Numbered from the stretch's first letter, positions 19,885-61,648 are shown. The stretch is 64,000 nt of DNA from an uncultured Gammaproteobacteria bacterium (GCA_964535715.1 CAZHUO010000003.1:256-64255), one strand, 5' to 3'. Translations and numbers: made by a program. The notes: a model not told the origin generated them from the letters alone.

Positions 19885-22304
19885 AAGTAGAAAACAGGCT
19901 TGAAGGAGGGGTAATTTTATTGGTTAACACCGGTTCAATCAAAAAACGTTTTATTTTGCAGAAGCTTAAAAAAATGGGATTGATTTTGGTTTGTTTGAAT
20001 AAAGAAAAAAATTGGGCCCAGTCTTATATTGATTATTGGATTTTAGCCGATAATGCAAATCATAGTGAATCAATTGCCGCGGTTAAGGAATTTATTTTAA
20101 ATAACCCGAATATAAAAATTGGCGGAGCGTTGACTTTTTGGGAAGATGATGTGCTTTTAACATCTAAAATAATAGATAAGCTGAATTTTATCGGCACACC
20201 TTATAATGTCGCCAAAAAAATAAGAAATAAATTTTTATTCAGGGATTTTTGTGAAAAAAACGGTTTGCCCGCTCCAAAGCATTCTTTGATTAAATCGGCA
20301 AACGACATTGAGAATTTATCCGATAAATTAAGTTTTCCTTTGGTTATTAAGCCGGTCTTTGGCGCAAGTAGCGCGTATGTCATAAAAGTTGATAACAAAG
20401 AAGAATTGGCAAATACTTACAGTTACATTAAAAAGAATATATCAACAAACATAGAAAGTTCCTTAAGCGATGGTTTGGAAATATTCATTGAAGAATATAT
20501 AGTGGGCGACGAGGTTGATATCGATATAATACTGCAAAACGGAAAAATTAAATTTTATTCAATATCTGACAATTATCAGACGAAGGAGCCGTTCTTTGTT
20601 GAAACCGGACAATCAATTCCCTCGGGCCTTTCCGACAAAGTTAAAAGTGATCTTGTTGATGTTGCTGAAGAAATTTTGGAAAAACTCGGTGTTCAAAATG
20701 GGGTTATTCATTTTGAGTCGAAATCAACTCCGACCGGACCGGTGCCGATTGAGATTAATTTAAGAATGGGCGGCGATGAAGTTCATTCTTTCGTCAAAGG
20801 CGCTTGGGGCGTTGATTTGATTGAAAATGCCGCTAAAATTGCTTTGGGAATATATATACCAAAAATTCAAAAACCAAGTACGCCCAAAAAATATATTACC
20901 GGAGTTTATTTTTTGCCGGAATATTCGGGCATTGTGTCAAAGCTTAATTTTAATAATGAGTTAACCAAAAAAAGTTATTTAGAAGAAGTTCATTTTTTTA
21001 AAAAAATTGGCGATCCGGTTTTAGTTCCGCCAGAAGGTTATGAATATTTGGGCTGGATTACGGTATCCGGTTTTAGCATGCTTGATGCCCAAGACAATCT
21101 TAAGGAGGCGTTAAAACATATTGACTTCAAAATTGCAAAGTTTGCTCCGGAATCATCAATCGGAAAGACCTCAAGAAAAAATAGTTTTTCTCATGCCTCA
21201 TTAAATACGAATTTGTTGATTCATGCGGCTAAAATTGAAAAATTAAGAAAAATCACTCCAAAAGAGCAAAGAAGCTTGCATATTGGCATTGCCTGTAATA
21301 TTTTTGACGACGGTGACGTCGCGATTGAAAATGAATTAATGACCATAGGAAAAAATATTGAAGAAACCCTAAAGGAGCGAGGCTATAAAATTACATTTTT
21401 TAATTTTAACGATATTAATAATGTTTTTCAGCAATTGAAATCAAGTGATGTTGATTTGGTTTTTAATGTTTGTGAAAGAATAAATAATTCAAGTTTGTTA
21501 GAGCCTCATGCCGCATCGCTTCTTGATATTTTGCAAATTCCTTATACCGGATCAAATCCTTCGACGCTAAGCCTGTGTATTGATAAATTAAGAGTAAAAA
21601 AACTTTTAACTCATCACAAAATTCCCACTCCTCGCTGGGATTACGCTTACGCGATGGATGAAGATATTGATGAGAGCCTCCAATATCCTTTGATTGTTAA
21701 GCCGGCAAATACCGATAATTCCATCGGCGTAACAAATGAATCGGTTGTGACAAATAAGGAAGATTTGCAGAAGCAGTTAAAAAAAGTAATTGTTGAAATC
21801 GGAAGTCCGGCTTTAATTGAAGAATATATTGAAGGCGATGAATATGACGTTTCAATTGTCGGAAGCGAGGATGACGACTTAAGAGTATTGCCTCTTTCTC
21901 GTTCAATTTTTTCCAATATGTCGCAAGGCAGCTGGCATATTTATACCCACGAAATGAAATTCTCAGATAAAACAATCGATCAATTCGGGGTGTTGGTTCA
22001 GCGGCCGCCGAAAAATATCAGCAAGCGCTTAAGTTCGCTTCTGACTGAAATTGCCCTTGATACTTACAATATTTTAGACTGTCACGACTATGGACGAGTT
22101 GAAATTAGGGTTGATAAGTATGACAATCCGTATGTTTTAGAATTAAATCCGAATCCATCCATTAATGTCGGAGACTGCCTGCCGGAAGTCGCCAAGCTGA
22201 CCGGAATGGATTATGGTGATTTTTTGGAAGACATTATCAATATGGCAATAAGGCGATACCGCAATCGTCCGCCTTATTACCATCTACAAACTACGCCTAT
22301 TTAA
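19881..22304 (+). CDS. Tandem double ATP-grasp ligase (two ATP-grasp modules; the second is D-Ala-D-Ala-ligase-like)
   Basis: Module 1 has LVIKPVFGASSAYVIKVDNKEEL and EEYIVGDEVDIDI. Module 2 has LIVKPANTDNSIGVTNESV, EEYIEGDEYDVSIV and LELNPNPS. Its start overlaps the upstream stop by 4 nt. Confidence 0.7.
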   Translation: MKVENRLEGGVILLVNTGSIKKRFILQKLKKMGLILVCLNKEKNWAQSYIDYWILADNANHSESIAAVKEFILNNPNIKIGGALTFWEDDVLLTSKIIDKLNFIGTPYNVAKKIRNKFLFRDFCEKNGLPAPKHSLIKSANDIENLSDKLSFPLVIKPVFGASSAYVIKVDNKEELANTYSYIKKNISTNIESSLSDGLEIFIEEYIVGDEVDIDIILQNGKIKFYSISDNYQTKEPFFVETGQSIPSGLSDKVKSDLVDVAEEILEKLGVQNGVIHFESKSTPTGPVPIEINLRMGGDEVHSFVKGAWGVDLIENAAKIALGIYIPKIQKPSTPKKYITGVYFLPEYSGIVSKLNFNNELTKKSYLEEVHFFKKIGDPVLVPPEGYEYLGWITVSGFSMLDAQDNLKEALKHIDFKIAKFAPESSIGKTSRKNSFSHASLNTNLLIHAAKIEKLRKITPKEQRSLHIGIACNIFDDGDVAIENELMTIGKNIEETLKERGYKITFFNFNDINNVFQQLKSSDVDLVFNVCERINNSSLLEPHAASLLDILQIPYTGSNPSTLSLCIDKLRVKKLLTHHKIPTPRWDYAYAMDEDIDESLQYPLIVKPANTDNSIGVTNESVVTNKEDLQKQLKKVIVEIGSPALIEEYIEGDEYDVSIVGSEDDDLRVLPLSRSIFSNMSQGSWHIYTHEMKFSDKTIDQFGVLVQRPPKNISKRLSSLLTEIALDTYNILDCHDYGRVEIRVDKYDNPYVLELNPNPSINVGDCLPEVAKLTGMDYGDFLEDIINMAIRRYRNRPPYYHLQTTPI

Positions 22305-22308
22305 ATTT

Positions 22309-23649
22309 ATGGCTGAAAATAAAAAAATGGCAAAAATCGGCTTGATGACCGGTGCAGTCGATAGCCTGATTTTTGCTTCGAAATGGACCAAAAATGAAAA
22401 TCAAGTTGTTTTTTTTGTGCCTGAAAGAACCAATGAGGAAAAATGGGCAAAAAGTTTTTTGCCGGCGGAAAACGTGGCGACTTATAATAAAGACAAGAAA
22501 CTTTCAATGGCAATTTTGGATTTTGAAGGCATCATTAAAAATTCCGATATTACCAAACGATTAAGAAATTTAGGCGTTAAATACTTCATACTCCATCACA
22601 GCGTAAGCGGTTTTCTAAATGACTGGCAGAAAAAATCAAAAATTAAACTGATTGCCTCCGATTTCAAATGGCATAAGCTTGAGGACAAGATTTTTTTTGA
22701 CCGATTTTTAAATAAGCATAATTTGCCCAAGCCGCAAAGCGAAATTTATTTTTGGGGCAAAAAAAATATTAAAATTAAAGGCAAGCTGGTTTTACAGGAT
22801 CCTCTTTCTGAGGGCGGGGAGGGCACTTATTTTATCGACCAGGCTTTAGATATTGAAAATTTTTTTGAAAAAACAAAATTAAGCAGGCAAAAAAAATATT
22901 TACTCAGAAAATATGCCGATGGAAGTTCTTTTGGAGTCACTATTTTTGTTTCATCGGGCCCGATTGCCGTTTCGGCCATAAGAAGCCAGTGCTATGAAAA
23001 AACCAATAAATCAAATCGGCGCCGTTTTTTGGGGGTTCAGTGGATTTCGGCTAAATCAATCAGTCAAAAAATCAAAGCCGATCTTAATAAGGTTTTCTTT
23101 TCTTTGGGCGAGTCATTGAAAAAATCGGGATTTTTCGGTTATGCCAGCATCGATTTTATTATCGGAGAAGACAACAAAATATATATTATTGAATGCAATC
23201 CCAGATTTTCCGCTTCTACTGCCCAGCTTTTGCAATTTCCTCAGACAATCGGCGGCTTGAATACGGCCAATTTATACTTTGATTATTTTTTTGGTAAGAG
23301 AAAAATATTTTCCAAAGGCAAATATTCCGGCTTGCAGAATTCTAAATTTAAGGGATCGATTTTACATATTGAAACTCCTGACTATAAAAAAAATTATCCG
23401 ATAATCAGGCAATATAAAAATGGCATCTATCAGCTTAACAAGGGTAAAATTTCATTTTTAACGCCGGATATTACCAAACTTGACGGTAAAGGCGATAAAT
23501 TCATTTATTATTCTGATGCCGAGAAAGGGGAAAAGATTGAAAATAGTACCGTTATTGGGCTTGTCATATCAAATTTTCCGTTATACAGTAATAGTGGGGA
23601 AATAAATAATAACGGAATTTGTATTTTAAAAAAATTTAAATTAATTTGA
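22309..23649 (+). CDS. ATP-grasp domain ligase
   Basis: GKLVLQDPLSEGGEGTYF and YASIDFIIGEDNKIYIIECNPRFSAST (ATP-grasp C-terminal Mg/ATP-binding block). Confidence 0.65.
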   Translation: MAENKKMAKIGLMTGAVDSLIFASKWTKNENQVVFFVPERTNEEKWAKSFLPAENVATYNKDKKLSMAILDFEGIIKNSDITKRLRNLGVKYFILHHSVSGFLNDWQKKSKIKLIASDFKWHKLEDKIFFDRFLNKHNLPKPQSEIYFWGKKNIKIKGKLVLQDPLSEGGEGTYFIDQALDIENFFEKTKLSRQKKYLLRKYADGSSFGVTIFVSSGPIAVSAIRSQCYEKTNKSNRRRFLGVQWISAKSISQKIKADLNKVFFSLGESLKKSGFFGYASIDFIIGEDNKIYIIECNPRFSASTAQLLQFPQTIGGLNTANLYFDYFFGKRKIFSKGKYSGLQNSKFKGSILHIETPDYKKNYPIIRQYKNGIYQLNKGKISFLTPDITKLDGKGDKFIYYSDAEKGEKIENSTVIGLVISNFPLYSNSGEINNNGICILKKFKLI

Positions 23650-23668
23650 ATCTTATTTTGAATAAGTA

Positions 23669-25003
23669 TTGATAAAATTTATGAAAAATATAAATTCATC
23701 AGCTGACAAAAAATTGATCCTGAAGCTATTGGCTGAAAAGTCAAGCGATAAAAAAGGCAATTTAACCGAAGTTGTCAATGAAACTTTGCAAAAGCGTAAA
23801 GCGATTTTGGCAATGGCCAAAAAGCATCCGACGCCTTTTTATTTGTTTGACCAAAATGCGCTTGATAAAAGAATCCGAGAATTTTCTGAAACTTTTAACC
23901 GTTATATTCCCAGTTTGGATATTTTTTATGCCATGAAATCAAACAGCCACCATTATTTGGTTAAAACGATGGTTAAACATGGATTAGGAATTGATGTTTC
24001 ATCTGGCCGGGAATTATCGCTTGCGCTAGAAAATAAGGCAAAAAAAATTATTTTCAGCGGCCCGGGCAAAACCGAGGCGGAATTGAATTTGGCCATAGAT
24101 AATAGCCAGAAAGTGACAATAAACATGGATAGTTTCGGCGAGCTGAAAAGGCTGGGAAATTTATTAAAAAGAAGGAATAAAAAAATAAAAGCCGGAATAA
24201 GGATTTATACGAAATATCATGGCAGCTGGAATAAGTTTGGAATCAATATTGAATCTTTGGCGGATTATTTCAGAGAAGCGAAAAAATACAAAAATATTGA
24301 TCTTTGCGGAATCCAATGCCATATGAGCTGGAGTAAAGACGAAAGCTCATATAAAAAGATGCTTTTGGAAATTGCCAATTTTTTAAAAAAAGATTTTACG
24401 GCCAAAGAGCGGGAAGCCGTTAAATTCATTGATTTCGGCGGCGGCTATGAAAATAACATGCTGGACGGCTATTATCCCTGGCTTATCCCAAAAAATGAAA
24501 TTCTGAAAATTGCCGGCGATTATTTTGACAAAAAAATAAATTTTTCGGATAAATATTATTTAACCGAATCGGCCAGCTTGGAAAAATACGCCAAAGCAAT
24601 CGGCTCAACGATAAAAAATGAATTGAAAGTTTTGGTTGATTGTGATTATTATTGTGAACCCGGTCGGATACTTTCCGCCAAATCAATGATTTTAGTTTTT
24701 AGAATTGTTGATGTCAAATCAAAAGATTTGGTTATTTTGGACGGCGGCATAAATATGGTTGGTTCTGACGACTTTGACTATTTTTATATTCCGGCTGTTA
24801 ATTTATCAAATTCGTCAAAAAAAGAAATAAAATGCCGTCTTTTTGGTCCGCTTTGCACTCCTTATGACTTTTGGACCCATTATTGCTATGCAAAAAAAAT
24901 GGAAGAAGGGGATATTGTTGTTTTTCCTAATCAGGGAGCTTATTCTTATTCATTGGCCCAAAATTTCATCAAGCCGATACCGGATGTTCATATTCTAAAG
25001 TAA
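23669..25003 (+). CDS. PLP-dependent decarboxylase, Orn/DAP/Arg decarboxylase family 2 (LysA-like; alanine-racemase fold)
   Basis: PLP-Lys motif FYAMKSN, GIDVSSGRE, DFGGGY and the C-terminal beta-barrel block CGPLCTPYD. Confidence 0.8.
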   Translation: MIKFMKNINSSADKKLILKLLAEKSSDKKGNLTEVVNETLQKRKAILAMAKKHPTPFYLFDQNALDKRIREFSETFNRYIPSLDIFYAMKSNSHHYLVKTMVKHGLGIDVSSGRELSLALENKAKKIIFSGPGKTEAELNLAIDNSQKVTINMDSFGELKRLGNLLKRRNKKIKAGIRIYTKYHGSWNKFGINIESLADYFREAKKYKNIDLCGIQCHMSWSKDESSYKKMLLEIANFLKKDFTAKEREAVKFIDFGGGYENNMLDGYYPWLIPKNEILKIAGDYFDKKINFSDKYYLTESASLEKYAKAIGSTIKNELKVLVDCDYYCEPGRILSAKSMILVFRIVDVKSKDLVILDGGINMVGSDDFDYFYIPAVNLSNSSKKEIKCRLFGPLCTPYDFWTHYCYAKKMEEGDIVVFPNQGAYSYSLAQNFIKPIPDVHILK

Positions 25004-30046: not shown

Positions 30047-30388
30047 GTTTGTTTAAAAAATGACTATTTAGATTAGAACTTTGTCCAAAATTGCTATTAG
30101 AGTATCAATGACGCTTACAAGTCATTTTTTTAAATTAGGCATTTGGTTATTATTTTAAAAATATGTTATAATATAATAAAGATTTTATTTTAAAATAGGG
30201 GAATTTTTAGCAATAGCTGACTCTCAAAAAATAATTATAAATTGGCTAGAGCATTGATTTAGAGCGGTATAGTAGACAGTTTTTAATTTCGATTCAATAT
30301 TTAATAACTTAATTTTTTAAGTGTTTCAAAATTCTGATTTAAACATTCATTTAAAATTCGAATTTTTGTATATTTTTTAATTTTTCTA

Positions 30389-30437
30389 AATTATAATGGA
30401 AAATCCGAATAAAAAAATATTGATTATTGAAGATGAC
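30389..30437 (+). repeat. Duplicated 5' fragment of the 30586 receiver gene (promoter-proximal plus first ~14 codons)
   Basis: aattatAATGGAAAATCCGAATAAAAAAATATTGATTATTGAAGATGAC is ~98% identical to 30582-30630, with one mismatch (ataATG vs atgATG). The G-to-A change in the upstream copy creates a TATAAT. Confidence 0.7.
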
Positions 30438-30585
30438 CACGCCCCAATTCCGCGATAATGTTTATTTAAAATCAATTTAAAAAGCGCGCGAATCCCGCCT
30501 TTCGGCTTGTAAAGTTATTGAGTCAAGTTTGAAGATTGAATTGAGGCGGGGCGAGACGTGTATATTTACTAATTTGTAACGAATT

Positions 30586-30969
30586 ATGATGGAAAATCCG
30601 AATAAAAAAATATTGATTATTGAAGATGACAATTTTTTAGCCAAAATGTTAAGCAGAATGATTACGGATTCTGGATATGAAGTTATTTTATCTTCATCCG
30701 GGCAGGAGGGTGTAAATAAAGCCGAAAGCAATAATGATATAGATTTAATTATATTGGATATTATGCTTCCGGATATTGATGGTTTTGAAGTATTAGAAAA
30801 AATCAAATCAAGCCAAAAAACGAAAAAAATACCGGTAGTAATAATGTCTAACCTTGGACAGCCCGAGGATGTTAAGCGGGGCAAGAATCTAGGGGCTATT
30901 GATCATTTGGTAAAAAGCGATTTCAGCCTTGACGAAGTTGCAAAGAAAATAAAAGGTTTTTTAGCATAG
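30586..30969 (+). CDS. Stand-alone response regulator receiver (PilH/CheY-like) heading the pilus locus
   Basis: ILIIEDD...LIILDIMLPDIDG...PVVIMSNLG receiver motifs. Confidence 0.8.
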   Translation: MMENPNKKILIIEDDNFLAKMLSRMITDSGYEVILSSSGQEGVNKAESNNDIDLIILDIMLPDIDGFEVLEKIKSSQKTKKIPVVIMSNLGQPEDVKRGKNLGAIDHLVKSDFSLDEVAKKIKGFLA

Positions 30970-30996: not shown

Positions 30997-32682
30997 ATGG
31001 AAATTAGCAATGAAAAATTGAAAAACTTAATTGCTGATTTGGACTTGATTCCGAAAGAAAGGCTCGAAAGTTCGTTTAAATTCGCCCAAGATCATAAAAA
31101 ATCCTTGGCCAGCGTTTTGGTTGAAGGCGATTTAATTTCCGATGACCATATTGGTCAGATTATTGCCGATGAAATGGGTTATCCATTCATTGATTTGGAC
31201 AAAGTGACAATCGAAGAAAAAACTCTTCAGCTGATTCCGAAAGTTATGGCTGAAAAACAGGGCGTAATTGCTTTTGAACAGAATGAAAATGGGGTAAAGC
31301 TGGCACTGGTTAATCCGGGAAATTTCCAGCTTATTAACTTAATTGAAAAAAAAACCGGGCAGACCGTTATTCCTTATTATACGACATCGGAGAATATTAA
31401 AATTTCCTTATCACGCTATCAAAAAGGAATACAGAATGAATTTGCCGGGATAATCGAGGAAAATATAAGTGAAGCTAAAAAAAGTTTAAAACCGGAGGAT
31501 TTGCCGATAATTAAAATTGTCGAAACGATTATTCAGTATGCCTATGAAAATGGGGCTTCAGACATTCACATTGAGCCGCAGGAAGAAAAAACTTTGGTTC
31601 GTTTCAGGATAGACGGAATTCTGCATGATATTATTGATTTGCCTAAAAATGTTCATGATCTGATAATTACCAGGCTGAAAATTCTTTCAAAATTGAGGAC
31701 TGATGAGCATCGAAGCGCCCAAGACGGAAAAATCAGGGTAAAATTTGGCAGCGACAAGCTTGACATTAGAGTTTCGATTATTCCGATTATTGAGGGTGAA
31801 AAAACCGTTTTGCGGCTGCTTTCGGAAAGAAATCGCCAATTCAGCCTTGAAGACTTGGGATTTTCCAGTGAAGACCTGGTTAAATTGAAAAAAGAAATAT
31901 CTAAGCCTTATGGCATGATTTTATCAACCGGTCCGACCGGCTCGGGAAAAACTACTAGCCTTTATGCAATCTTGAAGATTTTAAATCGCCGCGAGGTTAA
32001 TATTTCAACAATTGAAGATCCGGTTGAATATGATATGGAAGGAGTCAATCAAATTCAGGTGAATCCAAAAACAAATTTGACCTTTGCCGCCGGCCTTCGC
32101 TCGATATTGCGCCAGGATCCCAATATCATCATGGTTGGTGAAATTCGCGACCAGGAAACTGCCGATATAGCAATCAACGCGGCAATGACCGGACATTTGG
32201 TGCTTTCCACTCTTCATACAAATGATGCGCCGACAGCCTTGCCGAGATTTTTAAAAATGGGAATCGAGCCTTTTTTAGTTGCCTCAACAGTGAATATTAT
32301 AATTGCCCAAAGGCTTATTAGAAAGAATTGTAGTAGCTGTGTTGTCAGCAATGAAACTACCGTTTCACAGCTTAAAGATAAATTTTCAGCGGAACTGATT
32401 GAAAAATATTTTGGTAAAGATGGTAATAAAAAAATAAGACTTTATCACGGGAAAGGCTGCAAGCTTTGCGCCAATACCGGTTATTCCGGACGCTTGGGCG
32501 TTTTTGAGGTTTTGGCCGTTTCGGAAAAGATTAGGGAAATGATAATGCGTCGTTCTGACGCCGATGAAATAAGAAATCAGTCAGTAAAGGAGGGTATGAC
32601 AACAATGATTGAAGACGGAATCAAAAAGGCTCTTTCCGGCCTGACAACTGTCGAAGAAGTATTAAGGGCAACAAGGGAATAA
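30997..32682 (+). CDS. pilB: Type IV pilus assembly ATPase PilB / GspE family
   Basis: T2SSE N-domain, Walker A GPTGSGKTTSLYA, Asp/His boxes and a C-terminal tetracysteine (CSSC...CKLC). Confidence 0.9.
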   Translation: MEISNEKLKNLIADLDLIPKERLESSFKFAQDHKKSLASVLVEGDLISDDHIGQIIADEMGYPFIDLDKVTIEEKTLQLIPKVMAEKQGVIAFEQNENGVKLALVNPGNFQLINLIEKKTGQTVIPYYTTSENIKISLSRYQKGIQNEFAGIIEENISEAKKSLKPEDLPIIKIVETIIQYAYENGASDIHIEPQEEKTLVRFRIDGILHDIIDLPKNVHDLIITRLKILSKLRTDEHRSAQDGKIRVKFGSDKLDIRVSIIPIIEGEKTVLRLLSERNRQFSLEDLGFSSEDLVKLKKEISKPYGMILSTGPTGSGKTTSLYAILKILNRREVNISTIEDPVEYDMEGVNQIQVNPKTNLTFAAGLRSILRQDPNIIMVGEIRDQETADIAINAAMTGHLVLSTLHTNDAPTALPRFLKMGIEPFLVASTVNIIIAQRLIRKNCSSCVVSNETTVSQLKDKFSAELIEKYFGKDGNKKIRLYHGKGCKLCANTGYSGRLGVFEVLAVSEKIREMIMRRSDADEIRNQSVKEGMTTMIEDGIKKALSGLTTVEEVLRATRE

Positions 32683-32700: not shown

Positions 32701-33927
32701 ATGAAATTTAAATACATTGCTTTCGACAAAAATAATCAGACCGAAAAAGGCATTATTGAAGCAAGGGACTTGAGGGAAGCCACAAAGCTTTTGATTGACC
32801 AGGGTTGGTTTATAAAAAAAATTTCCCCGCGCGGTAAGTTAAAATCCGGCTTTATGGAATTTAGTTTTGGCAGCGTTCCTTTGGTGGAGAAAGTTTTATT
32901 TGCAAAACACCTAGGAGTCATGCTTAAATCGGGCATCAATTTAAATGAGGCGTTGGAAGTTATTGTTCAGCAGGCGCCGTCAAAAAAATTCGGGAAAATT
33001 ATTAATAATGTTTTAGAAAGCGTTAAAAAAGGCCAGAGCCTAGGCAGTGCAATTGCTAAATATCCGAAAGTATTTGATCCGCTATTTGTAAATATCATCA
33101 AGGTTGCCGAAGAAAGCGGAACCTTGCAAGAGAATTTGGAATATTTGACCAATGAAATGGAGGAACGCTTGGAGCTTAAAAAAAATATCAGAAATGCCTC
33201 TTTTTATCCGGCAATTGTTCTAACTTCCACTTTTGGACTTGGTTTTATCCTATCTTATTTTGTTTTGCCAAAAATTACCGCTCTTTTTAAAAGTTTAAGT
33301 TTTGAGCTGCCATTATCGACCAAATTTTTGCTTTTTGTCGCTGAAATGATGGATAAACATGGTCTTGTCATTTTTACTGTTATTATTTTGTCTATAATTT
33401 TTCTGCGGATTTTGACTAAACAGAAATTTTTTAAAAAACCCTGGCATTGGTTTTTAATTAAAATGCCGATACTGGGCAACATTATTATAAATTATAATCT
33501 GGTTTTAGTTACCAGAACTCTGGCGATTTTGCTTAAAAGCGGCCTGACAATCGATAGGGGAATTGAGATTGCAATCCAGACAACATCTAATGTAATCTAT
33601 AAAAATAGGCTTAAGCAAATTTTACCTCAAATTCAAAAAGGAAAAAAATTGTCCGATTCAATCAGTGGTTTTAAGCAGTCGAAAAGAAAGCCGTTGTTTC
33701 CAATGTTAGCAATAAAAATGATTGGCGTTGGCGAACGGTCGGGGAGGCTTGATGAATCTTTGAGCTATCTTTCCGAATATTTTGGCAAAGAAGTCGATAA
33801 TACGACAAAAAATTTGACAACCGTTTTGGAACCGCTGCTATTGATTTTTGTTGGTTTAGTGGTTGGCTTTATTGCGATTTCGGTTATTTCGCCTATTTAC
33901 CAAATCACGGGTCAATTTAGAAAATAG
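32701..33927 (+). CDS. pilC: Type IV pilus inner-membrane platform protein PilC / GspF family
   Basis: Two T2SSF repeats with the characteristic TM pattern. Confidence 0.85.
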   Translation: MKFKYIAFDKNNQTEKGIIEARDLREATKLLIDQGWFIKKISPRGKLKSGFMEFSFGSVPLVEKVLFAKHLGVMLKSGINLNEALEVIVQQAPSKKFGKIINNVLESVKKGQSLGSAIAKYPKVFDPLFVNIIKVAEESGTLQENLEYLTNEMEERLELKKNIRNASFYPAIVLTSTFGLGFILSYFVLPKITALFKSLSFELPLSTKFLLFVAEMMDKHGLVIFTVIILSIIFLRILTKQKFFKKPWHWFLIKMPILGNIIINYNLVLVTRTLAILLKSGLTIDRGIEIAIQTTSNVIYKNRLKQILPQIQKGKKLSDSISGFKQSKRKPLFPMLAIKMIGVGERSGRLDESLSYLSEYFGKEVDNTTKNLTTVLEPLLLIFVGLVVGFIAISVISPIYQITGQFRK

Positions 33928-34017: not shown

Positions 34018-34461
34018 ATGAGAGGTTTTACTTTAATTGAATTAATATTGGTTATTGCAATTATCTCCATAGTTGCGACTTTAAGTGTTCCATTTATCCA
34101 AATTTTTCAAACTTCATCTGATTTTTATACTCACGTTGATACAATTACTAAAACATTGCGTAAAGCCCGCCATTTAGCCGTAACCGGAAAGAACGGATCT
34201 GATTGGGGGGTTTATTTTGATAATATTGAAAAAAAAATAATTCTATTCAAGGGAAATAATTTTGCCGTCCGCGATACGAATTATGATTTGGAGGAAAAAT
34301 ACGCCGACATATTCAGTGTCAACGCCGATTTTGGCAATGAAATCTATTTTGCTTTATATTCCGGCCTGCCCTCCGCTTACGGTACTGTCACCGCATCTAC
34401 CATAGTTAATAATGATATCAAATATATAAACATACAAAGTTTTGGTTTGATAAATAAATAA
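34018..34461 (+). CDS. Prepilin-type (pseudopilin / minor pilin) protein
   Basis: N-terminal G-FTLIELILVIAIISIV class III signal with Glu+5. Confidence 0.8.
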   Translation: MRGFTLIELILVIAIISIVATLSVPFIQIFQTSSDFYTHVDTITKTLRKARHLAVTGKNGSDWGVYFDNIEKKIILFKGNNFAVRDTNYDLEEKYADIFSVNADFGNEIYFALYSGLPSAYGTVTASTIVNNDIKYINIQSFGLINK

Positions 34462-37013
34462 TGCATTCATTTAATAAATTTAAAAACCAAATAGGTTTAA
34501 GCTTGGTTGAAATTATTTTAGCCATAGCATTGTTTGGGCTTGTTTCAGTTCCGCTTATTTTAATACTTATTAATTCATATGGCAGCAATCTTCAAGCTGA
34601 AGAAAGAGAAATTGCTGTTTTATATGCACAGCAGGGAATTGAAGCGGTAAAATCAATCCGCAGGCAGGCCTGGAATTTATTAGATAATGGCAATTATGGC
34701 TTGACCAATGTTAACGGTTACTGGCAGTTTTTGGGCAGTTCTGATTTATTGGAAAATAAATATACCCGGACTATTACAATTTCTGATGCTTGTCGTGACA
34801 GCGGAAATAATTTGGTTGACTGTCCTAATGTTTTAGTTGATTTTCATGCAAAAAAAATTATATCTTCAGTTGATTACAATTCTATCAATGGTTTTAATAA
34901 TGTTGTTAATTTGGTCAGTTACGTCACTATCTGGCAATCAAAAGACTGGGTGCAAACCGACTGGTCGGGCGCTTTGGGCCAAACTCAATGGTTTGACCAG
35001 TCAAAATATTTTAGTGATGACGGTAATATAGATTATTCCACTAGCGGAGAAATCAAATTAAAAAGCCTAGAAGGCGGCGGAGGCTGCGGCGTCAAGATTT
35101 GGATTTTTGATAACTCTGCCGATTACACTTATGACCCTAATAAAATTGAGGTTACTGGCGGTTTTGCCCAGCTTAAAGGTACGTCTTTTTGCTCTGGAAC
35201 GCCGACTTCGTGCGGCAATCTTGCCAGTCAGATTTCCTGCCAAGCTCAAGCTGGCTGCAGCTGGGATCAACCACCAGGCAATTGTCAAAATAATGGCAGT
35301 TGTACAGCTGTATCCCGCAATGAATGCAATACTTGCAATTTAGCCGGCTGTTCCCGCAGCGGCAACAAATGTACTGGTACCTTAAACTGCTCAGCTTATA
35401 CCAGCCAAGCTGCTTGCGGCACCTGTAATCAGTGTTTATGGAGCCAGCAGCCTGGTTCTTGCTTGGGCACGCCGACTCCTTGCGGTAATTTAACTGACCA
35501 AACTTCTTGTCAAACTCAAACTGGTTGCAGCTGGACTGGCAATTATCCGGCCGACCAACCAGATATTTATCCGGTTGCCTCTTTTAGCGTTCCACAAATT
35601 GATGCCTGGACTTCTTTTACTGAAGTGGCGACCAAAAACGGAGGAGAAATTTATTACCAGCTTTCCGATGGTACGACCTGGTATTGGTATGATGGCAGTA
35701 ATTGGGCGCCGGCTAATACTGACCCCGGTACGACGGATTATAATTTAGCCAGCGTGATTAGCACTAATATTAACAGTTTCCCAGTTAGTAGCCAGGAAAT
35801 AAAATTTAAAGCATTTTTTCAAAGTGATGGTTTGCAGCAAGTTCAGTTAGATGAAGTAAAAATTAGCTGCTCGCAATATTATGATTGGCCTTTTACAGCA
35901 AATGCCGATTACACCTATGACCCTAATAAAATTGAGGTTACTGGCGGTTTTGCCCAGCTTAAAGGTACGGCTTTTTGTTCTGGTACTCCAAATCCTTGCA
36001 GTAATTTTACCAGTCAAACTTCCTGCCAAACTCAAGCTGGCTGCAGCTGGGATCAACCACCAGGCAATTGTCAAAATAATGGCAGTTGTACAGCTGTATC
36101 CCGCAATGAATGCAATACTTGCAATTTAGCCGGCTGTTCCCGCAGCGGCAACAAATGTACTGGTACCTTAAACTGCTCAGCTTATACCAGCCAAGCTGCT
36201 TGCGGCACCTGTAATCAGTGTTTATGGAGCCAGCAGCCTGGTTCTTGCTTGGGCACGCCGACTCCTTGCGGTAATTTAACTGACCAAACTTCTTGTCAAA
36301 CTCAAACTGGTTGCAGCTGGACTGGCAATTATCCGGCCGACCAACCAGATATTTATCCGGTTGCCTCTTTTAGCGTTCCACAAATTGATGCCTGGACTTC
36401 TTTTACTGAAGTGGCGACCAAAAACGGCGGTGAAATTTATTACCAGCTTTCCGATAATGAAGGATCAAGCTGGAAATTTACCAATGGCATTGTTTGGCTG
36501 CCGGTAACAGGGTCGACCGACTATAATACAGCAAGTGAAATTAATTCCAGTATTCTAGCTTTTCCGACAACAACGGCGAAAATTATGTTTAAAGCATTCC
36601 TTTCTTCAGATGGCAGCCAGCAGGTTCAGCTAGATAACGTGACTATCGGCTTTGGCGAAGCGGTTGGCATAAGCGGCTATACAACCGCCGGCTGGCTTGA
36701 ATCATCGGCTTTTAACACCGGCTGGTTTAGCTCTTTTAATTTTTTGTCCTGGACGGAGACTATTCCTTCAGCCGCCTATGATATTCAAATACAAATCTCA
36801 ACTGCCCCAGACAACGCCGGCGTGCCCGGAATTTGGTCAGATTGGCTTGGACCAAGCGGGTCTGGCAGCTTTTATTTAAGCGGCGATGAAATTATAATTC
36901 CTATATTTAATAACCACAACGACAGCCAATGGGTGAAATATAAAATTTTTATGAGTGGTGACGGCATTGATACTCCAATTTTGCAAGACATAAAAATTAA
37001 TTATACACCATGA
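34461..37013 (+). CDS. Giant pilin-like protein. It has a prepilin-type N-terminal helix followed by two near-identical 262-aa Cys-rich repeats and a C-terminal beta-rich region.
   Basis: N-terminal GLSLVEIILAIALFGL with Glu+5. Repeat unit CSGTP..CGN...CQ.Q.GCSWDQPPGNCQNNGSCTAVSRNECNTCNLAGCSRSGNKCTGTLNCSAYTSQAACGTCNQCLW... occurs twice. Confidence 0.7.
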   Translation: MHSFNKFKNQIGLSLVEIILAIALFGLVSVPLILILINSYGSNLQAEEREIAVLYAQQGIEAVKSIRRQAWNLLDNGNYGLTNVNGYWQFLGSSDLLENKYTRTITISDACRDSGNNLVDCPNVLVDFHAKKIISSVDYNSINGFNNVVNLVSYVTIWQSKDWVQTDWSGALGQTQWFDQSKYFSDDGNIDYSTSGEIKLKSLEGGGGCGVKIWIFDNSADYTYDPNKIEVTGGFAQLKGTSFCSGTPTSCGNLASQISCQAQAGCSWDQPPGNCQNNGSCTAVSRNECNTCNLAGCSRSGNKCTGTLNCSAYTSQAACGTCNQCLWSQQPGSCLGTPTPCGNLTDQTSCQTQTGCSWTGNYPADQPDIYPVASFSVPQIDAWTSFTEVATKNGGEIYYQLSDGTTWYWYDGSNWAPANTDPGTTDYNLASVISTNINSFPVSSQEIKFKAFFQSDGLQQVQLDEVKISCSQYYDWPFTANADYTYDPNKIEVTGGFAQLKGTAFCSGTPNPCSNFTSQTSCQTQAGCSWDQPPGNCQNNGSCTAVSRNECNTCNLAGCSRSGNKCTGTLNCSAYTSQAACGTCNQCLWSQQPGSCLGTPTPCGNLTDQTSCQTQTGCSWTGNYPADQPDIYPVASFSVPQIDAWTSFTEVATKNGGEIYYQLSDNEGSSWKFTNGIVWLPVTGSTDYNTASEINSSILAFPTTTAKIMFKAFLSSDGSQQVQLDNVTIGFGEAVGISGYTTAGWLESSAFNTGWFSSFNFLSWTETIPSAAYDIQIQISTAPDNAGVPGIWSDWLGPSGSGSFYLSGDEIIIPIFNNHNDSQWVKYKIFMSGDGIDTPILQDIKINYTP
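35121..35669 (+). repeat. Intragenic tandem repeat, copy 1 (period 786 bp)
   Basis: 35243-35669 is identical to 36029-36455 apart from 2 nt. Confidence 0.85.
35907..36455 (+). repeat. Intragenic tandem repeat, copy 2
   Basis: See copy 1. Confidence 0.85.
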
Positions 37014-37606
37014 TAAAAAATATTAAATCTAAAATCTTAAATCTCAAATCTCTTGAAAGGCAGGGTGGTTTTACCCCGCACCTTTTGTGCGTAATAAAAG
37101 AAAGAACATTAATCCATAGAAAAGGTGCGGGGTTTACTTTGATAGAATTGATTATCTATTTGGGAATTGTCGGCATGATTTTGGTCAGCATTTCTTATCT
37201 GATTTTGGATATTATGGTTGGTCAGGCGACTAATTATGCAGATCAGGAAGTCAATTATAACTTTCGCTATATTGCCGATATTTTAACTGATGACATCAAA
37301 TCCTCACAAGACATCGGAAGTCTAACTAATAGTAATTTGGTTTTAATTATGGCAGGTGATGATATTATATATAATTTTGATGAAACAAATAAAATTTTAT
37401 CCAGGCAAGTTGGCGATGCAGCGCCTTTGTCTGTCAATAATGAAAATATTGAAATTATTGGAAATTTTACCGATTTTTCAAAAATGGGCAGAACAAAAAA
37501 CGTGGGCATTCATTTAAATATAAGTTATAAAAATCCCGGCAATATTTCTGATTATAATTCAACCACTACTGTTGATTTTGCAGTTGAGCTTCGCGGCAGG
37601 AGATAA
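37010..37606 (+). CDS. Prepilin-type minor pilin. The annotated ORF has an unusually long leader, so the true start may be an internal non-ATG codon.
   Basis: ...HRKGAG-FTLIELIIYLGIVGMILV class III signal. Confidence 0.6.
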   Translation: MIKNIKSKILNLKSLERQGGFTPHLLCVIKERTLIHRKGAGFTLIELIIYLGIVGMILVSISYLILDIMVGQATNYADQEVNYNFRYIADILTDDIKSSQDIGSLTNSNLVLIMAGDDIIYNFDETNKILSRQVGDAAPLSVNNENIEIIGNFTDFSKMGRTKNVGIHLNISYKNPGNISDYNSTTTVDFAVELRGRR

Positions 37607-37608
37607 AT

Positions 37609-38022
37609 ATGAAAAATTATAAATCACAAAATCAAAATTCCAAGCAATTTTTCGGCCAAGAGCGGGGCGGTTATATTGCATTGATTTCATTATTAATTGT
37701 TTCAGCCGCTGCTTTGACGATAGGAATTGCCGTAAGCCTCAGGGGAATTGAAGAGATTCAAATGAGTTATTCTTCTCAAAAAGCGGCTGAAGCTGAAAAT
37801 TTGGCTGATGTTTGTATTGAGGAAGGATTAGAGAATTTACGAAATATTTGGGCTGATTATTCAAATTCCTTGTTTTTTGGCAGCAATTCTTGTATAATAA
37901 ATACAGAAGTTGATGCAAGTAATGCAATTCTATACGCAACTGGAACTGCAGATGTTTATACTCAAAAAATTGAAGTCAAAGTTGACACTAATTTAGATGT
38001 GATTTATTGGAAAAATAATTAG
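37609..38022 (+). CDS. PilX-N-like pilus assembly / minor pilin protein
   Basis: ERGGYIALISLLIVSAAALTIGIAV resembles the PilX N-terminal domain. Confidence 0.45.
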   Translation: MKNYKSQNQNSKQFFGQERGGYIALISLLIVSAAALTIGIAVSLRGIEEIQMSYSSQKAAEAENLADVCIEEGLENLRNIWADYSNSLFFGSNSCIINTEVDASNAILYATGTADVYTQKIEVKVDTNLDVIYWKNN

Positions 38023-38060: not shown

Positions 38061-39896
38061 ATGCTTAATAGAAAAATATTCGGTCTGGATATTTCCGATC
38101 ATTCAATAGAGGCTTTGATGCTGAAAAAAAGAATTTTTGGCAAGCCAAAAGTATATTCTTACGCCAGGTCGATATTAAGAAGCGAGATTGTCAGTAACGG
38201 AATTATTAAAGATGCAAAAAAACTGGAAGAAAATATTGTAAAACTTATATATTCGGCAAAACCGAGGCTGTTTCGGACGCCGTATTGTATTTTATCTTTG
38301 CCAGAATCCCAAATTTTTACGGCGATATTTAAACTCCCGGCCGGATTAAGGCACGATGAAATTAAAAAGACAATTCCTTACAAAGCCGAAGAAGTCATCC
38401 CTTTTGAATCGACGGAAATTTATTTTGATTTTAAAGTAATAAAAAAGCAAGGAGCCACTCAGGAGGTATTTTATGCAGCTGTTTTGTCTAAAGTAGTTGA
38501 TTCATATGTCAGAGTTTTAAAAAACGTTGGATTAAAACCGGTTGCTTTTGATCTTGAATCAGTAAGTCTTGCTAAGGCACTTTTAAAGAATGGCAAAAAA
38601 TTACAAGGAAAAATATTGCTGGATATTGGCGCCAGGACTTCTAATCTAAGCATTTTTGATCAAAGTGGAATCAGACAAAGTCTAATAATAAAAGTAGCCG
38701 GAAATCGGTTTACTAAAGCAGTGGCAAAAGGTTTAGGCATAGCTGAAAAATTAGCTGAAGAACAAAAAATAAAAAATGGCTTGGATGAAAAAAATCAAAA
38801 GCCGAAAGCCTTGACCGCTTTAAAAAGCGAACTTAACAAGATAATCTCCGAGGTTAAAAAAGTAGTTGATTATTACCAGTTGGAAAATCAAAGGCAGATT
38901 GATGAGGTTATTTTGGCCGGCGGTTCGGCATTAATGCCGGGTATTGAAAAATATTTTTTTGACTCTTTAAAAATTAAAACTTCCATAGGCAATCCTTTTT
39001 TAAAAATTTCCGCTGGCCGATTTGATAAATTGAAAAATTATGGCGTAATGTTTTCCAACGTCTGTGGACTTGCCTTGCGGGGGATAAACAAAAAAGCGAT
39101 AACAAGCGATATAAATCTTCTGCCATTCCCGGCAAGAAGGCTTGAATTAATGCCGGAAAAATCAAATTTTAAAGCCTGGATTCCTTTTTATATTCGTTTG
39201 ATAATTTTAATAATATTGATTTTTGTATTGGGAGGAATTTTTTATTTAAAGAGTATTGGGGTTGATTTTTATAATAAAGTATTTCCAACCGAAACATATG
39301 AAAGCAAAATTACTCCCGATTTTGACATGGAGGTGATTGACCAGCTTCGCCAGAGATTAAATTCGACAAGTACCGAAGCTTTAATTAATGAAAATAATGC
39401 AGACAAAACGGAGGAGATAAAAATTGAAAAAATGGTAAAAGTTAAAGATACTCCGGCAGGAACGCTAAATGTAAGGCAAGGTCCGGCAACATCTTATGAT
39501 TTGGTAGGCAAAGTAACGCCGGGTCAGGAACTAAAATTTATTGAGGAGCAGAACGGCTGGTATAAAATTATTTTTGAGGGCACAAAAGAAGGCTGGGTTA
39601 TTAAAACCTACGCTGATATAATTGAAGTTAATGTCAATCAAAACCAGCAACCTTTGCCTGAAGTCAAAGGAGTTTCAATTCAGCTTGATAAAATTAAAAT
39701 TAGTAATGTTGATTCTGGATTTTTAAATGTTAGAAGCCAGCCGGGAATTGAAAATGAAAAAATTGGTAAAGTGATGGCCGGCCAGGAGTTTGAAGTTCTA
39801 GCCGAAGTCGAAGGCTGGTATAAAATTGAGTATACTGAAGACAAATATGGCTGGGTTTCTTCAGAATTCGCTTCACCAATTGAAAATAATAATTAA
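38061..39896 (+). CDS. PilM-like actin-fold pilus assembly protein fused to a PilN-like TM segment and two C-terminal SH3b domains
   Basis: N-terminal IFGLDISDHSIEAL (PilM). TM helix at ~aa 375-395. Two ...LNVR.GP...G.V..GQE......GWYKI....GW... SH3_3-type repeats. Confidence 0.6.
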   Translation: MLNRKIFGLDISDHSIEALMLKKRIFGKPKVYSYARSILRSEIVSNGIIKDAKKLEENIVKLIYSAKPRLFRTPYCILSLPESQIFTAIFKLPAGLRHDEIKKTIPYKAEEVIPFESTEIYFDFKVIKKQGATQEVFYAAVLSKVVDSYVRVLKNVGLKPVAFDLESVSLAKALLKNGKKLQGKILLDIGARTSNLSIFDQSGIRQSLIIKVAGNRFTKAVAKGLGIAEKLAEEQKIKNGLDEKNQKPKALTALKSELNKIISEVKKVVDYYQLENQRQIDEVILAGGSALMPGIEKYFFDSLKIKTSIGNPFLKISAGRFDKLKNYGVMFSNVCGLALRGINKKAITSDINLLPFPARRLELMPEKSNFKAWIPFYIRLIILIILIFVLGGIFYLKSIGVDFYNKVFPTETYESKITPDFDMEVIDQLRQRLNSTSTEALINENNADKTEEIKIEKMVKVKDTPAGTLNVRQGPATSYDLVGKVTPGQELKFIEEQNGWYKIIFEGTKEGWVIKTYADIIEVNVNQNQQPLPEVKGVSIQLDKIKISNVDSGFLNVRSQPGIENEKIGKVMAGQEFEVLAEVEGWYKIEYTEDKYGWVSSEFASPIENNN

Positions 39897-39928: not shown

Positions 39929-40405
39929 ATGAGAAAATCTATGAAAAAACAAAAAGGTTTTACTCTTATTGAGCTTTTGATTGTAATTGCAATCATTGCA
40001 ATTTTAGCATCAATAATTTATGTAGCGGTCGATCCAGCCCGCCGAATACAAGAGGCAAGGGATGCCCAGCGCTGGAGTTCGGTAAATTCCATTTTGAACG
40101 CTTATTTAAAGTATACGGTTGACAATGTCGGTACGGAACCGACAACTATTACCGGTACAAGCGCCCACATGATTTCAATAACCGGAACAACGGGAGTAAC
40201 TGCGCCGACTGACGCTTGTGCAGCAACAACAACCGCTTATGTGGCAAATTTGAGCAATTTAGTCCCAAACTATATTGCCGAAATTCCAGTTGATACTAAT
40301 TTTGCTAATGACTCCGGTTATTATATTACTAGGAATTCTGCCGGCAGAATAACAATTGGCGCATGTAACCCGGAAAGAACTACCGCCGTAAGCGTACAAA
40401 GGTAA
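39929..40405 (+). CDS. Type IV (major) pilin, paralog 1
   Basis: KG-FTLIELLIVIAIIAILA class III signal. Conserved DPARRIQEARDAQRWSSVNSILNAYLKYTVDN block shared with the next gene. Confidence 0.8.
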   Translation: MRKSMKKQKGFTLIELLIVIAIIAILASIIYVAVDPARRIQEARDAQRWSSVNSILNAYLKYTVDNVGTEPTTITGTSAHMISITGTTGVTAPTDACAATTTAYVANLSNLVPNYIAEIPVDTNFANDSGYYITRNSAGRITIGACNPERTTAVSVQR

Positions 40406-40456: not shown

Positions 40457-40531
40457 TTTTATATTTAATGTTATAATATAATTGATATTTGTAATTATAA
40501 TTAAATATTGTTTAAGATATTAGGGGAATAT

Positions 40532-41020
40532 ATGAAAAAACAAAGCGGGCTTACACTTATTGAGCTTTTAATTGTGATTGCAATTGTTGCGATTTTGGCG
40601 GCAATAATTTATGAGTCCATTGACCCTCCCAGGCGCATGGCAGAAGTTAGAAATGCAAGCCGATGGAGTTCGGTGAATGCAATTTTAAATTCATATTTAA
40701 AATATACTGTTGACAATGTTGCAGAACCTGTGGTTTTATCGTCCGGATTATATTATTTGATTGGTACGGACACAAGCGGATGCAATGCCTGCATAGCAAA
40801 AACAACTGAGCCGGCCTGTATTGATTTATCAGTCCTTGTTGACCGCTATTTGACGAAAATTCCTGGTGATCCAAGCTTTGCTGTTGATAATGATTTAAAT
40901 GGAATTTGGGATAAAACCGGTTTTTATATAATGCGTTCAAATAACGGCAGAATTTCAGTCGGAGCATGCAGCCCAGAAATAATATTGGGCCAAATTCAGG
41001 AAATCGAGGTAAGCCGTTAA
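40532..41020 (+). CDS. Type IV pilin, paralog 2
   Basis: SG-LTLIELLIVIAIVAILA. The RBS AGGGGA lies 5 nt upstream of the ATG at 40532. Confidence 0.8.
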   Translation: MKKQSGLTLIELLIVIAIVAILAAIIYESIDPPRRMAEVRNASRWSSVNAILNSYLKYTVDNVAEPVVLSSGLYYLIGTDTSGCNACIAKTTEPACIDLSVLVDRYLTKIPGDPSFAVDNDLNGIWDKTGFYIMRSNNGRISVGACSPEIILGQIQEIEVSR

Positions 41021-48738: not shown

Positions 48739-48846
48739 TGTTTATTTCCTCCTATTTGTTGTGTTATTTTAACCGGAACAAGGAATGCTAGCATTTTTTA
48801 GGCATATTCCTCTCCCTCTGGTCATTTCGACCGAGTATTCATATAT

Positions 48847-48945
48847 CTTGTCACTCTGAACTTGCCTGCCCGCCGAAACGAAATGAAGGCGGGTTTCAGA
48901 GTCTCAAGACTTCCCTAGATCCTGAACCAAGTTCAGGATGACAAA
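48847..48945 (-). mobile_element. MITE-like / structured repeat element, copy X (terminal inverted repeats TTTGTCA(T/C)(C/T)CTGAACTTG)
   Basis: About 95% identical to the reverse complement of 61510-61608. It is embedded in a ~235-bp unit (48833-49067) that is also conserved. Confidence 0.65.
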
Positions 48946-49036
48946 AATGACAAGTACTGTAAGCTCAGATGAACGGCGACGGAACAAATAATTTGCATGA
49001 GCGTATTCGTAGTACGCCATGAAAGGCTCCGGAACA

Positions 49037-49067
49037 TAAAAAAACCGCTTAGCATTTGCTAAGCGGG
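49037..49067 (-). terminator. Minus-strand intrinsic terminator after the metallophosphoesterase gene
   Basis: CCGCTTAGCAAATGCTAAGCGG hairpin followed by T7. Confidence 0.6.
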
Positions 49068-61397: not shown

Positions 61398-61418
61398 AAT
61401 ACTGGCTGTCTTTTTTTA
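61388..61418 (+). terminator. Intrinsic terminator after the nrdR-like gene; it forms the first part of repeat unit Y
   Basis: CAGCCGGTAAAATACTGGCTG hairpin followed by T7. Confidence 0.65.
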
Positions 61419-61509
61419 TGTTCCAAAGCCTGTCATGGCGCTTAACAATGCATTCATGCGAATACTATAGTTCCGCAGCCGGTCTCTCAACCTACAGTAC
61501 TTGTCTATT

Positions 61510-61608: not shown

Positions 61609-61648
61609 ATATATGAATACTCAATCGTAATGACAATAACAAGCAATA

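Follow-up and report, generated by a model that had tools for sequence, protein, structure and literature searches.

The subject of this analysis is a gene on the plus strand of a 64,000-nucleotide (nt) stretch of DNA from an uncultured bacterium (GCA_964535715.1, CAZHUO010000003.1:256-64255), which as a whole is referred to as the window and whose positions are counted from its first letter. The gene (34461-37013, including the stop codon) encodes an 850-residue protein that, in the explanation that best accounts for the evidence as a whole and that we consider fairly probable, is a minor pilin of modular build from a type IV pilus (T4P) of the monoderm type, with modules that have undergone conversion and a putative display at the pilus tip. 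To judge from sequence relationships, the source is a bacterium of the Patescibacteria (candidate phyla radiation, CPR) whose closest relatives are Candidatus Buchananbacteria, and the protein is probably the variable binding end of a pilus thought to attach cells to hosts. The exact 850-residue protein is present in an NCBI-derived collection on one contig only, and more than 200 proteins match it. An annotation made earlier from the DNA alone, the original prediction, had placed an 850-residue open reading frame (ORF) with a tandem repeat at these coordinates; this is confirmed by the ORF list of the window.

Origin of the Identical Tract

The repeat is direct, ungapped, and in frame, with an offset of 786 nt (3 x 262, a period of 262 codons), and its two copies (35117-35669 and 35903-36455, plus strand) are 96.7% identical over 553 nt. 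Their longest exact run is 397 nt (35245-35641, equal to 36031-36427). The 64-kb window has two other self-repeats, one of 227 nt (86% identity) and one of 72 nt (89% identity); the 96.7% repeat is far beyond chance and is the sole long, high-identity repeat in the window. Its similarity is unevenly distributed. Residues 219-403 correspond to residues 481-665, and the 262-residue period that had been described holds, but the near-identity ascribed to the whole of each repeat is confined to about 184 of the 262 residues. The copies have 95-97% nt identity over residues 219-243 and 78% in a 20-codon patch over the first Cys motif (35184-35244), with 7 nonsynonymous and 4 synonymous codon differences; over residues 262-403 they are identical save two synonymous changes, and from residue 404 the remaining 77 or so residues of each unit have 35-65% protein identity, with near random third codon positions. 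A block of 427 nt (35243-35669 and 36029-36455) had been reported to differ by 2 nt; the GGAGGA/GGCGGT pair, which is synonymous, is present as reported (35642 and 35645), but a further mismatch at 35244 brings the count to three. The G+C content of the repeat (47-48%, versus 36.6% for the window) was considered as a sign of foreign origin, which was set aside because the Cys/Gly/Pro/Ala-rich coding explains it and orthologues carry the module.

Each module consists of a segment of β-strands ("pre"), a Cys-rich insert, and a jelly-roll core ("post"). The diverged halves of modules 1 and 2 have just 52% identity to one another. That of module 1 is nearest to module 1 of other species, with 65% identity to that of homologue P0007, with which its tail shares a PANTxxGTTDYN indel and an LDEVKI ending, and it is also near module 1 of P0008 and P0002; that of module 2 is nearest to module 2 of others, with 60% identity and an LDNV.IG ending in the comparison with P0004, and also near P0012 and P0002. 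Since each module is nearest to the same-position module elsewhere, sequence comparison indicates that modules 1 and 2 are old paralogues and that the identical tract is the result of recent, nonreciprocal intragenic gene conversion and not of fresh duplication, which decides between the two origins, very recent duplication or gene conversion, that the original prediction had offered. The converted stretch, of about 430-550 nt, includes part of "pre," the whole Cys insert, and the first 46 residues of "post." In the closest relatives, P0002 and P0005, the Cys insert is in module 1 and a different insert of about 235 residues is in module 2; the direction of conversion is therefore likely to have been from module 1 to module 2. 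A diversity-generating retroelement was also considered; adenines are not favored among the 18 differences (G>A 5, T>C 3, C>T 3, and others), so that the signature of such an element is excluded, and no reverse transcriptase was found among the window ORFs scanned.

If the whole 786-nt unit had recently been duplicated in tandem and its 3' part had then diverged very fast, this would agree with the exact register and the head-to-tail layout of the copies, and the relative at locus L015 has a clear recent whole-module tandem duplication (1095 nt at 100% identity). For the present gene, however, this history is highly improbable, because identity drops sharply at the 3' edge of the tract (35669/35670), past which it is 43-63% at the nt level with third positions saturated, and a single clock is incompatible with this and the 0% divergence of the adjoining 397 nt. 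The affinity of the module tails for same-position modules (P0007, P0008, and P0002 for module 1; P0004, P0012, and P0002 for module 2) and the different insert of about 235 residues in module 2 of the closest relatives also argue against it.

The tract, or its two-copy layout, might instead have been made by a short-read metagenome assembler, through mis-resolution of a loop, mixing of strains, or collapse or expansion of a repeat, the real gene then having a single copy, more than two, or two that resemble each other less. The 397-nt exact run exceeds typical reads and k-mers, the contig is of the metagenome type and is the only one with the exact protein, and it should be recognized that short-read metagenome-assembled genomes (MAGs) may misreport the copy number at this locus. 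Such an artefact is nevertheless improbable. The repeat keeps the reading frame, the sequences that flank it are true, diverged paralogues that match the same-position modules of other species, and both two-module and three-module orthologues exist; the patch of 16 mismatches and the two synonymous differences inside the tract would not be created by a simple collapse, and comparable internal repeats are present in independent assemblies from different groups and assemblers.

The recurrence of such repeats was measured with minimum values of 80 nt for length and 95% for identity, the controls being other ORFs of at least 500 residues in the same loci. Internal repeats are present in 8 of 72 family genes and in none of 132 control ORFs (Fisher p = 1.8e-4), with the reservation that L002 and L012 are the same contig, so that the nonredundant count is about 7/71. 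They include a perfect 1095-nt tandem duplication in L015 (gene coordinates 615-1709 and 1740-2834) and a 374-nt repeat at 99.7% identity in L055 (783-1156 and 1260-1633), both of which are either very recent events or assembly issues, as well as a 132-nt repeat at 99.2% in L005. In the gene for P0006 (L003), the 4-Cys "A motifs" that flank the core of the insert are 98.9% identical over 91 nt and have the same 270-nt spacing; flanking A motifs are near-identical within one protein and differ between proteins, and several proteins, such as P0020, have identical or near-identical module tails. The family is prone to intragenic homogenization events, and the suggestion that the repeat is a hotspot for length variation gains support from this recurrence.

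The Pilin-like N Terminus and the Jelly-roll Modules

Sequence conservation and structure prediction support the view that the protein carries a pilin-like N terminus with a predicted cleavage site. The class III (prepilin) leader (residues 1-12, 34461-34496) ends in Gly12, and cleavage is predicted, at the position denoted by a slash, in MHSFNKFKNQIG/LSLVE (...KNQIG/LSLVE), the N terminus across the site being MHSFNKFKNQIG/LSLVEIILAIALFGLV. Among 95 aligned members of the family, the residue at -1 is Gly in 91 and Ala in 3, positions -2 and -3 are basic or polar (Lys, Arg, or Gln), the median leader has 11 residues, and Glu at +5 (Glu17 here) is invariant (95/95); this Glu is associated in type IV pilins with filament incorporation. 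The mature N terminus (Leu13-Ser-Leu-Val-Glu17) and hydrophobic α1 (34497-34667), with LSLVEIILAIALFGLVSVPLILI as its α1-N segment, are followed by a globular pilin head (residues 70-160, 34668-34940). The AlphaFold2 model of residues 1-205 has a predicted local distance difference test score (pLDDT) of 86.4 and contains a 55-residue helix (residues 15-69, pLDDT 88-98) and then an antiparallel sheet (strands 77-82, 89-91, 95-97, 101-112, 125-140, and 146-156), with a Cys pair, Cys111 and Cys121, each of which is kept in 87 of the 95 homologues. The class III prepilin N terminus of the original prediction is thus supported by the conserved Gly and Glu, the helix and sheet, and the operon. Relatives are annotated in their sources as "PilV family" or "prepilin-type," and the best matches of the N-terminal domain, which are weak, are to the NCBIfam models for the second minor-pilin slot, XpsI/GspI (E 0.009), PilV (E 0.016), and ComGE (E 0.055).

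Module 1 (plus strand, like all of the segments described here) is composed of the "pre" strands (residues 206-243, 35076-35189; alignment A1 and five AlphaFold strands), Cys-rich insert 1 (residues 244-357, 35190-35531), and the "post" core (residues 358-467, 35532-35861; alignment A1, AlphaFold, and a weak CBM6-like Foldseek match). The corresponding segments of module 2 are residues 468-505 (35862-35975), insert 2 (residues 506-619, 35976-36317), and residues 620-734 (36318-36662). The whole protein has 40 Cys, with 18 in each insert, conserved in homologues, and not the 24 or so per module that had been claimed. An AlphaFold2 model of residues 205-480, made with a curated 25-row alignment, has a pLDDT of 91.9 and a predicted template modeling (TM) score of 0.75. 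Structure prediction had been proposed at the outset as a check on the repeat, and the insert proves to be well ordered in the model (pLDDT 85-95); by DSSP, it is made up of four strand-helix-strand mini-units of about 28 residues, in the order A motif, two core units, and A motif, with Cys spacings of Cx6Cx8Cx5CxW, Cx5Cx8Cx2Cx4C, Cx5Cx8Cx2Cx2CxW, and Cx6Cx8Cx5CxW, respectively.

A Foldseek search of the PDB with the module model gave no match at E <= 1e-3. The highest-ranking hits (E 0.013, probability up to 0.93, TM about 0.2-0.4) cover the β core only and are to carbohydrate-binding modules (CBM6, CBM61, CBM86, and CBM15) and domain III of Cry1Ac; a BFVD search of the module gave low-TM matches to uncharacterized phage, LamG-like, and tail proteins. 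Nothing meaningful was found for the modules in Pfam, NCBIfam, or PDB sequences, matches to Paramecium_SA (E 0.76), IL17R fnIII (E 0.02), and acylphosphatase (E 0.01-0.1) being judged to be noise. A search of 1.84 billion cluster representatives with the Cys insert by itself gave 54 matches at E <= 1e-3, of which 11 reach E <= 1e-10; other pilin-type proteins are among them. The 4-Cys A motif (CxGxxxxCxxxxxxxxCxxQxGC) is also found in small lipoprotein-like secreted proteins (P0137, P0149, P0150, P0153, P0156, P0166, and others), whose N termini are unlike those of Patescibacteria, and therefore the mini-unit may be an older and more widespread disulfide motif.

The ends of the protein appear to be related to the two parts of a module. 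The conserved C-terminal domain (residues 735-850, 36663-37010), a third jelly-roll half without an insert, aligns with "post" in hhalign (probability 80%, E 1.3e-5), and the tail of the N-terminal region, "pre0" (residues 169-205, 34965-35075), which has a QTDWSGGxGQ...DDGNID...GEIKL motif and a low pLDDT when folded without a partner, aligns with "pre" (probability 70%, E 4e-5; reversed control, E 0.15). The tail would provide the first strands of an outer split jelly-roll and the C-terminal domain would be its "post0" partner. The minimal members P0049, P0052, and P0090 have a single insert between the tail and the C-terminal domain, and it adjoins the tail directly. The two similarities and this layout therefore suggest a nested, or recursive, domain insertion in which the insertion loop of the outer split jelly-roll hosts the inner modules.

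The Pilus Operon and the Proposed Role of the Protein

The 850-residue protein is encoded among PilB, PilC, PilM, and five other pilin-type genes, all on the plus strand. The PilB assembly ATPase (30997-32682; T2SSE E 6e-131, TIGR02538 E 1e-167) and the PilC platform protein (32701-33927; T2SSF E 1e-56) precede a block of four genes in which the order is a GspH/ComGD-like minor pilin (34018-34461; site MRG/FTLIE, N_methyl 26.7 bits, with weak matches to the GspH and ComGD models), the 850-residue protein, a minor pilin in the ComGF/GspJ position (37010-37606; site G/FTLIE, N_methyl 23.6 bits, ComGF E 3e-4), and a small protein of 137 residues in the GspK/ComGG/PilX position (37609-38022). The last has a hydrophobic N terminus (GG/YIALI) that lacks Glu5 and no family match in profile searches, and its slot holds a gene for about 128-130 residues in orthologous loci. 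The 850-residue ORF shares 1 nt with the pilin gene before it, at the stop codon of the latter (TAATG), and 4 nt with the pilin gene after it, at the start codon of that gene (ATGA), and therefore the three genes are probably translationally coupled. They are followed by a 611-residue PilM fused to two C-terminal SH3 domains (38061-39896; PilM_2 E 1e-40, SH3_3 E 3e-32), a fusion that is also present in the orthologous loci L001 and L002 and that suggests a tie between the cytoplasmic/membrane pilus machinery and a cell-wall-binding module in monoderm-like cells. Downstream are a candidate major pilin (39929-40405; site KG/FTLIE, N_methyl 45.7 bits) and a second, paralogous pilin (40508-41020; site SG/LTLIE, N_methyl 38.6 bits), for which a TTG start is listed and an internal ATG (MKKQSG/LTLIE) is probably the real start. 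The two adjoining paralogues downstream of pilM correspond to one or two pilin genes in orthologous loci.

The 850-residue protein thus occupies slot 2 of 4 in the order GspH-I-J-K, FimU-PilV-W-X, or ComGD-E-F-G, and the order is the same in L001-L003. Gene order is kept around the orthologues P0002, P0003, and P0006, in which the product of the large gene has 953, 1186, and 594 residues, respectively, and the conservation reaches downstream to DJ-1 and UvrB. The comparison with orthologues that the original prediction had recommended therefore gave two results, a retained slot-2 gene order and modules matched by position. A response regulator gene (30586-30969) precedes pilB here and in orthologous loci. 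Its upstream region and first 14 codons (MENPNKKILIIEDD) are duplicated in a 72-nt direct repeat with 89% identity (30367-30437 and 30559-30630).

In the proposed mechanism, a prepilin peptidase would cleave the leader, and the protein would join the three neighboring minor pilins in a priming complex and so be placed at the pilus tip, as in the established GspHIJK and FimU-PilVWX priming models. The pilin head would be buried in the filament and the jelly-roll array would project outward, with the disulfide-knotted inserts acting as exposed ligand-binding or rigid spacer elements that contact the surface of a host cell. The inserts would be oxidized by an MdbA/VKOR-type system of the CPR; CPR genomes are enriched in an MdbA-like oxidoreductase and VKOR (10.1101/335083), which makes extracytoplasmic disulfide formation plausible, and PilT, MdbA, and VKOR were not found among the ORFs scanned in the 64-kb window. 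In-frame recombination between modules or flanking A motifs could swap, delete, duplicate, or homogenize cassettes and so alter binding specificity or reach. A one-module allele would have 588 residues, near the 594 of orthologue P0006.

Alternatively, the protein may not be an adhesive tip subunit but a membrane-anchored surface protein or a pseudopilin of a secretion or competence (Com-like) machine, with modules that serve in DNA capture, cell-wall spanning, or signaling. In gene order the operon is like those of Com and type II secretion systems, and the matches of the N-terminal domain to ComGE and to PilV are equally weak; T4P of the CPR have been linked to DNA uptake (10.1101/335083), and the locus of the jelly-roll pilin PilX1 of TM7x encodes an essential "thick" twitching pilus and not the host-binding pilus (PMC11623550). 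We nevertheless regard such a role as unlikely. The cassettes of relatives (lectin/LamG, pentraxin-like, DUF4082, and β-propeller) are typical of ligand binding as opposed to DNA binding, the extreme variation in length and content (488 to >2208 residues) within a conserved operon fits surface recognition, and the invariant Glu at +5 is the residue associated with filament incorporation. The pilus-tip adhesin of the original prediction is consistent with the position of the gene, the weakly CBM-like jelly-rolls, and the lectin, LamG, and propeller domains of relatives, and it stays a putative assignment.

Several observations weigh against the identification of the protein as a converted, tip-displayed minor pilin. 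The residue at +1 is Leu and not Phe, and in most relatives it is Gln (Gln in 56 of the 95 homologues, Phe in 23, and Leu in 4, including the present protein). The match to Pfam N_methyl (PF07963) is 16-18.6 bits, under the cutoff of 21.2 bits, and that to TIGR02532 is 11.8 bits (cutoff 16.3); the unusual residue at +1 is probably the reason for the low N_methyl score, and the homologues P0024, P0010, and P0086 pass the N_methyl cutoff with 22-24 bits. The scores for XpsI (16.1 bits, cutoff 150), PilV (15.7, cutoff 52.2), and ComGE (13.6, cutoff 49) are all far below the thresholds, and a Foldseek search of the PDB with the N-terminal model gave nothing significant (best E 0.11; a Thermus pilin, E 0.52). 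The larger ORFs scanned in the 64-kb window included no prepilin peptidase (Peptidase_A24). The likeness to CBMs is weak and confined to the β core, the nested topology comes from short profile alignments and not from a full-length model, and the binding of a ligand, the location at the tip, and the pattern of disulfides are putative. Finally, the 397-nt tract is longer than short reads, and both the copy number and the exact identity depend on the assembly.

Two further features of the window lie outside the pilus genes. An intergenic element of 224 nt occurs twice, in inverted orientation and with 86% identity between the copies (48821-49044, plus strand, and 61411-61634, minus strand). Its first 130 or so nt are near-invariant and fold into long hairpins, and it ends in a run of A. 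It matches no Rfam family (a trpB motif, E 0.3, was below threshold), the window contains no tRNAs, and the element could be a noncoding RNA or else a small repeat that is mobile or bears a terminator. A cluster at 19881-25003, upstream of the pilus genes, encodes an 807-residue double ATP-grasp/D-Ala-D-Ala-ligase-like protein, a second ATP-grasp protein, and a pyridoxal phosphate-dependent ornithine/diaminopimelate decarboxylase, and is followed by an ABC exporter; to judge from its gene content, it may represent a peptide or cell-wall-modification pathway.

Variation in the Family and Relationship to Known Systems

Among the GTDB species representatives of Patescibacteria, at least 452 have a gene for a relative of the N-terminal domain. 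The lineages include Buchananbacteria (closest, 64%), Magasanik-, Uhr-, Falkow-, Komeili-, Kerfeld-, Ryan-, Dojka-, Berkel-, and Sungbacteria, and Microgenomates, and also MAGs labeled Saccharibacteria, which share the N-terminal domain but not a match to the module hidden Markov model (HMM). Nearly all of 120 listed homologues have the N-terminal domain of about 205 residues and the 108-residue C-terminal domain, with one to three β modules between them, each with a "pre" segment of about 35 residues, an insert at a single insertion site, and a "post" segment of about 115 residues. The inserts are highly variable. Among 165 modules, they are absent or of 40 residues or less in 12, some of these being a single 28-residue A motif, consist of the 18-Cys A-core-A unit of 113-127 residues in 11, have 160-250 residues in 114, and are larger in 28. 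P0024 has a ConA-like lectin/Laminin_G_3 domain within the insert of module 1, and the variable region contains a LamG/pentraxin-like domain in P0114, DUF4082 in P0061, and an LVIVD propeller in P0086. In P0090 (520 residues), about five "IYHYNGxNWS" repeats, which resemble β-propeller blades, are present at the insertion site (residues 215-400, approximately); they match no Pfam family at E <= 1e-3 and, from their sequence, appear to be another uncharacterized type of cassette. In 80 loci, the product of the family gene has from 488 to more than 2208 residues.

The core minor pilins GspI, PilV, and ComGE share with the present protein the position in gene order, Glu at +5, and its weak best HMM matches. 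GspI-type proteins have about 100-140 residues and no extra domains, whereas the present protein has about 650 additional residues and matches that are far below the curated cutoffs. ComZ of Thermus, CofB of enterotoxigenic Escherichia coli and TcpB of Vibrio, and PilY1 are large subunits at the pilus tip that supply a T4P with an additional binding domain. ComZ and CofB retain a pilin-like N-terminal part, with a β-solenoid insertion in ComZ and an H-type lectin domain in CofB, whereas PilY1 is not a pilin and has a β-propeller; no sequence or fold match of the present protein to ComZ, CofB/TcpB, or PilY1 was found, the comparison with tip proteins of the PilY1 and ComZ types having been proposed in the original prediction. 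CBM6-type jelly-rolls (such as 2cdo/2cdp) and domain III of Cry toxins are the best, nonsignificant, likenesses of the core, with low TM values and no sequence similarity, and they have no counterpart of the Cys-rich insert.

Large minor pilins with accessory domains are already known, including in Patescibacteria, and the kind is not new. One of the two closest experimental parallels is with PilB and PilC of Streptococcus sanguinis, in which a vWA or lectin module, respectively, is grafted C-terminally on a class III signal-peptide pilin and which mediate adhesion (PMC8179133, PMC9934059). The present protein likewise has a pilin head (residues 1-160) followed by an independently folding jelly-roll/Cys module (pLDDT 91.9), and all are minor pilins of monoderm T4P whose part in adhesion or glycan binding is either direct or proposed. 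However, it has no sequence or domain homology to the vWA module or the PilC lectin, and it differs in having a jelly-roll array with an insertion site and Cys-knot inserts, a length in the family of about 490 to >2200 residues, and intragenic conversion. The other is with Nanosynbacter lyticus TM7x, in which PilX1 (jelly-roll) and PilX2 (propeller) are large accessory-domain minor pilins that have been proposed to be tip proteins, and deletion of pilX2 approximately halves host binding (PMC11623550); no cysteines or Cys-rich modules, repeated or nested modules, or gene conversion are described for them, and the comparison with the present protein is one of architecture. Concerted evolution of repeat-bearing surface adhesins is exemplified by MgPa of Mycoplasma genitalium, a host-dependent bacterium with a small genome in which repeated stretches of the coding sequence for an attachment protein recombine (PMC2169797), but in the present protein the donor and acceptor are tandem modules of the same gene, and dispersed silent cassettes of the MgPar or pilS kind are absent. 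In the literature searched, there was no earlier account of a repeated, possibly nested jelly-roll scaffold with a common insertion site, of the 18-Cys module, or of pervasive intragenic conversion.

The variation of the family raises the tentative and rather doubtful possibility of a lineage-wide "cassette-display" protein of the pilus tip, in which a split jelly-roll would present, in one loop, recursively nested jelly-rolls carrying swappable warheads (the 18-Cys knot module, lectin/LamG, DUF4082, or propeller) that are reshuffled by conversion, duplication, and deletion between A motifs. If this is true, the gene would be a determinant of host range in episymbionts, functionally analogous to the receptor-binding proteins of phages.

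Apart from this possibility, the gene offers a case of clear concerted evolution within a single bacterial gene and of possible recursive domain insertion, together with a rare 18-Cys domain that is confidently predicted and has no Pfam or NCBIfam model. Host recognition by ultrasmall episymbionts is largely unexplained; T4P are leading candidates for it, and experiments have been limited to a few cultivated Saccharibacteria. A constant slot in the operon combined with an exposed part that is rebuilt from genome to genome is the pattern expected of a specificity determinant, and the family therefore provides a concrete and widespread target for predicting and testing host range.

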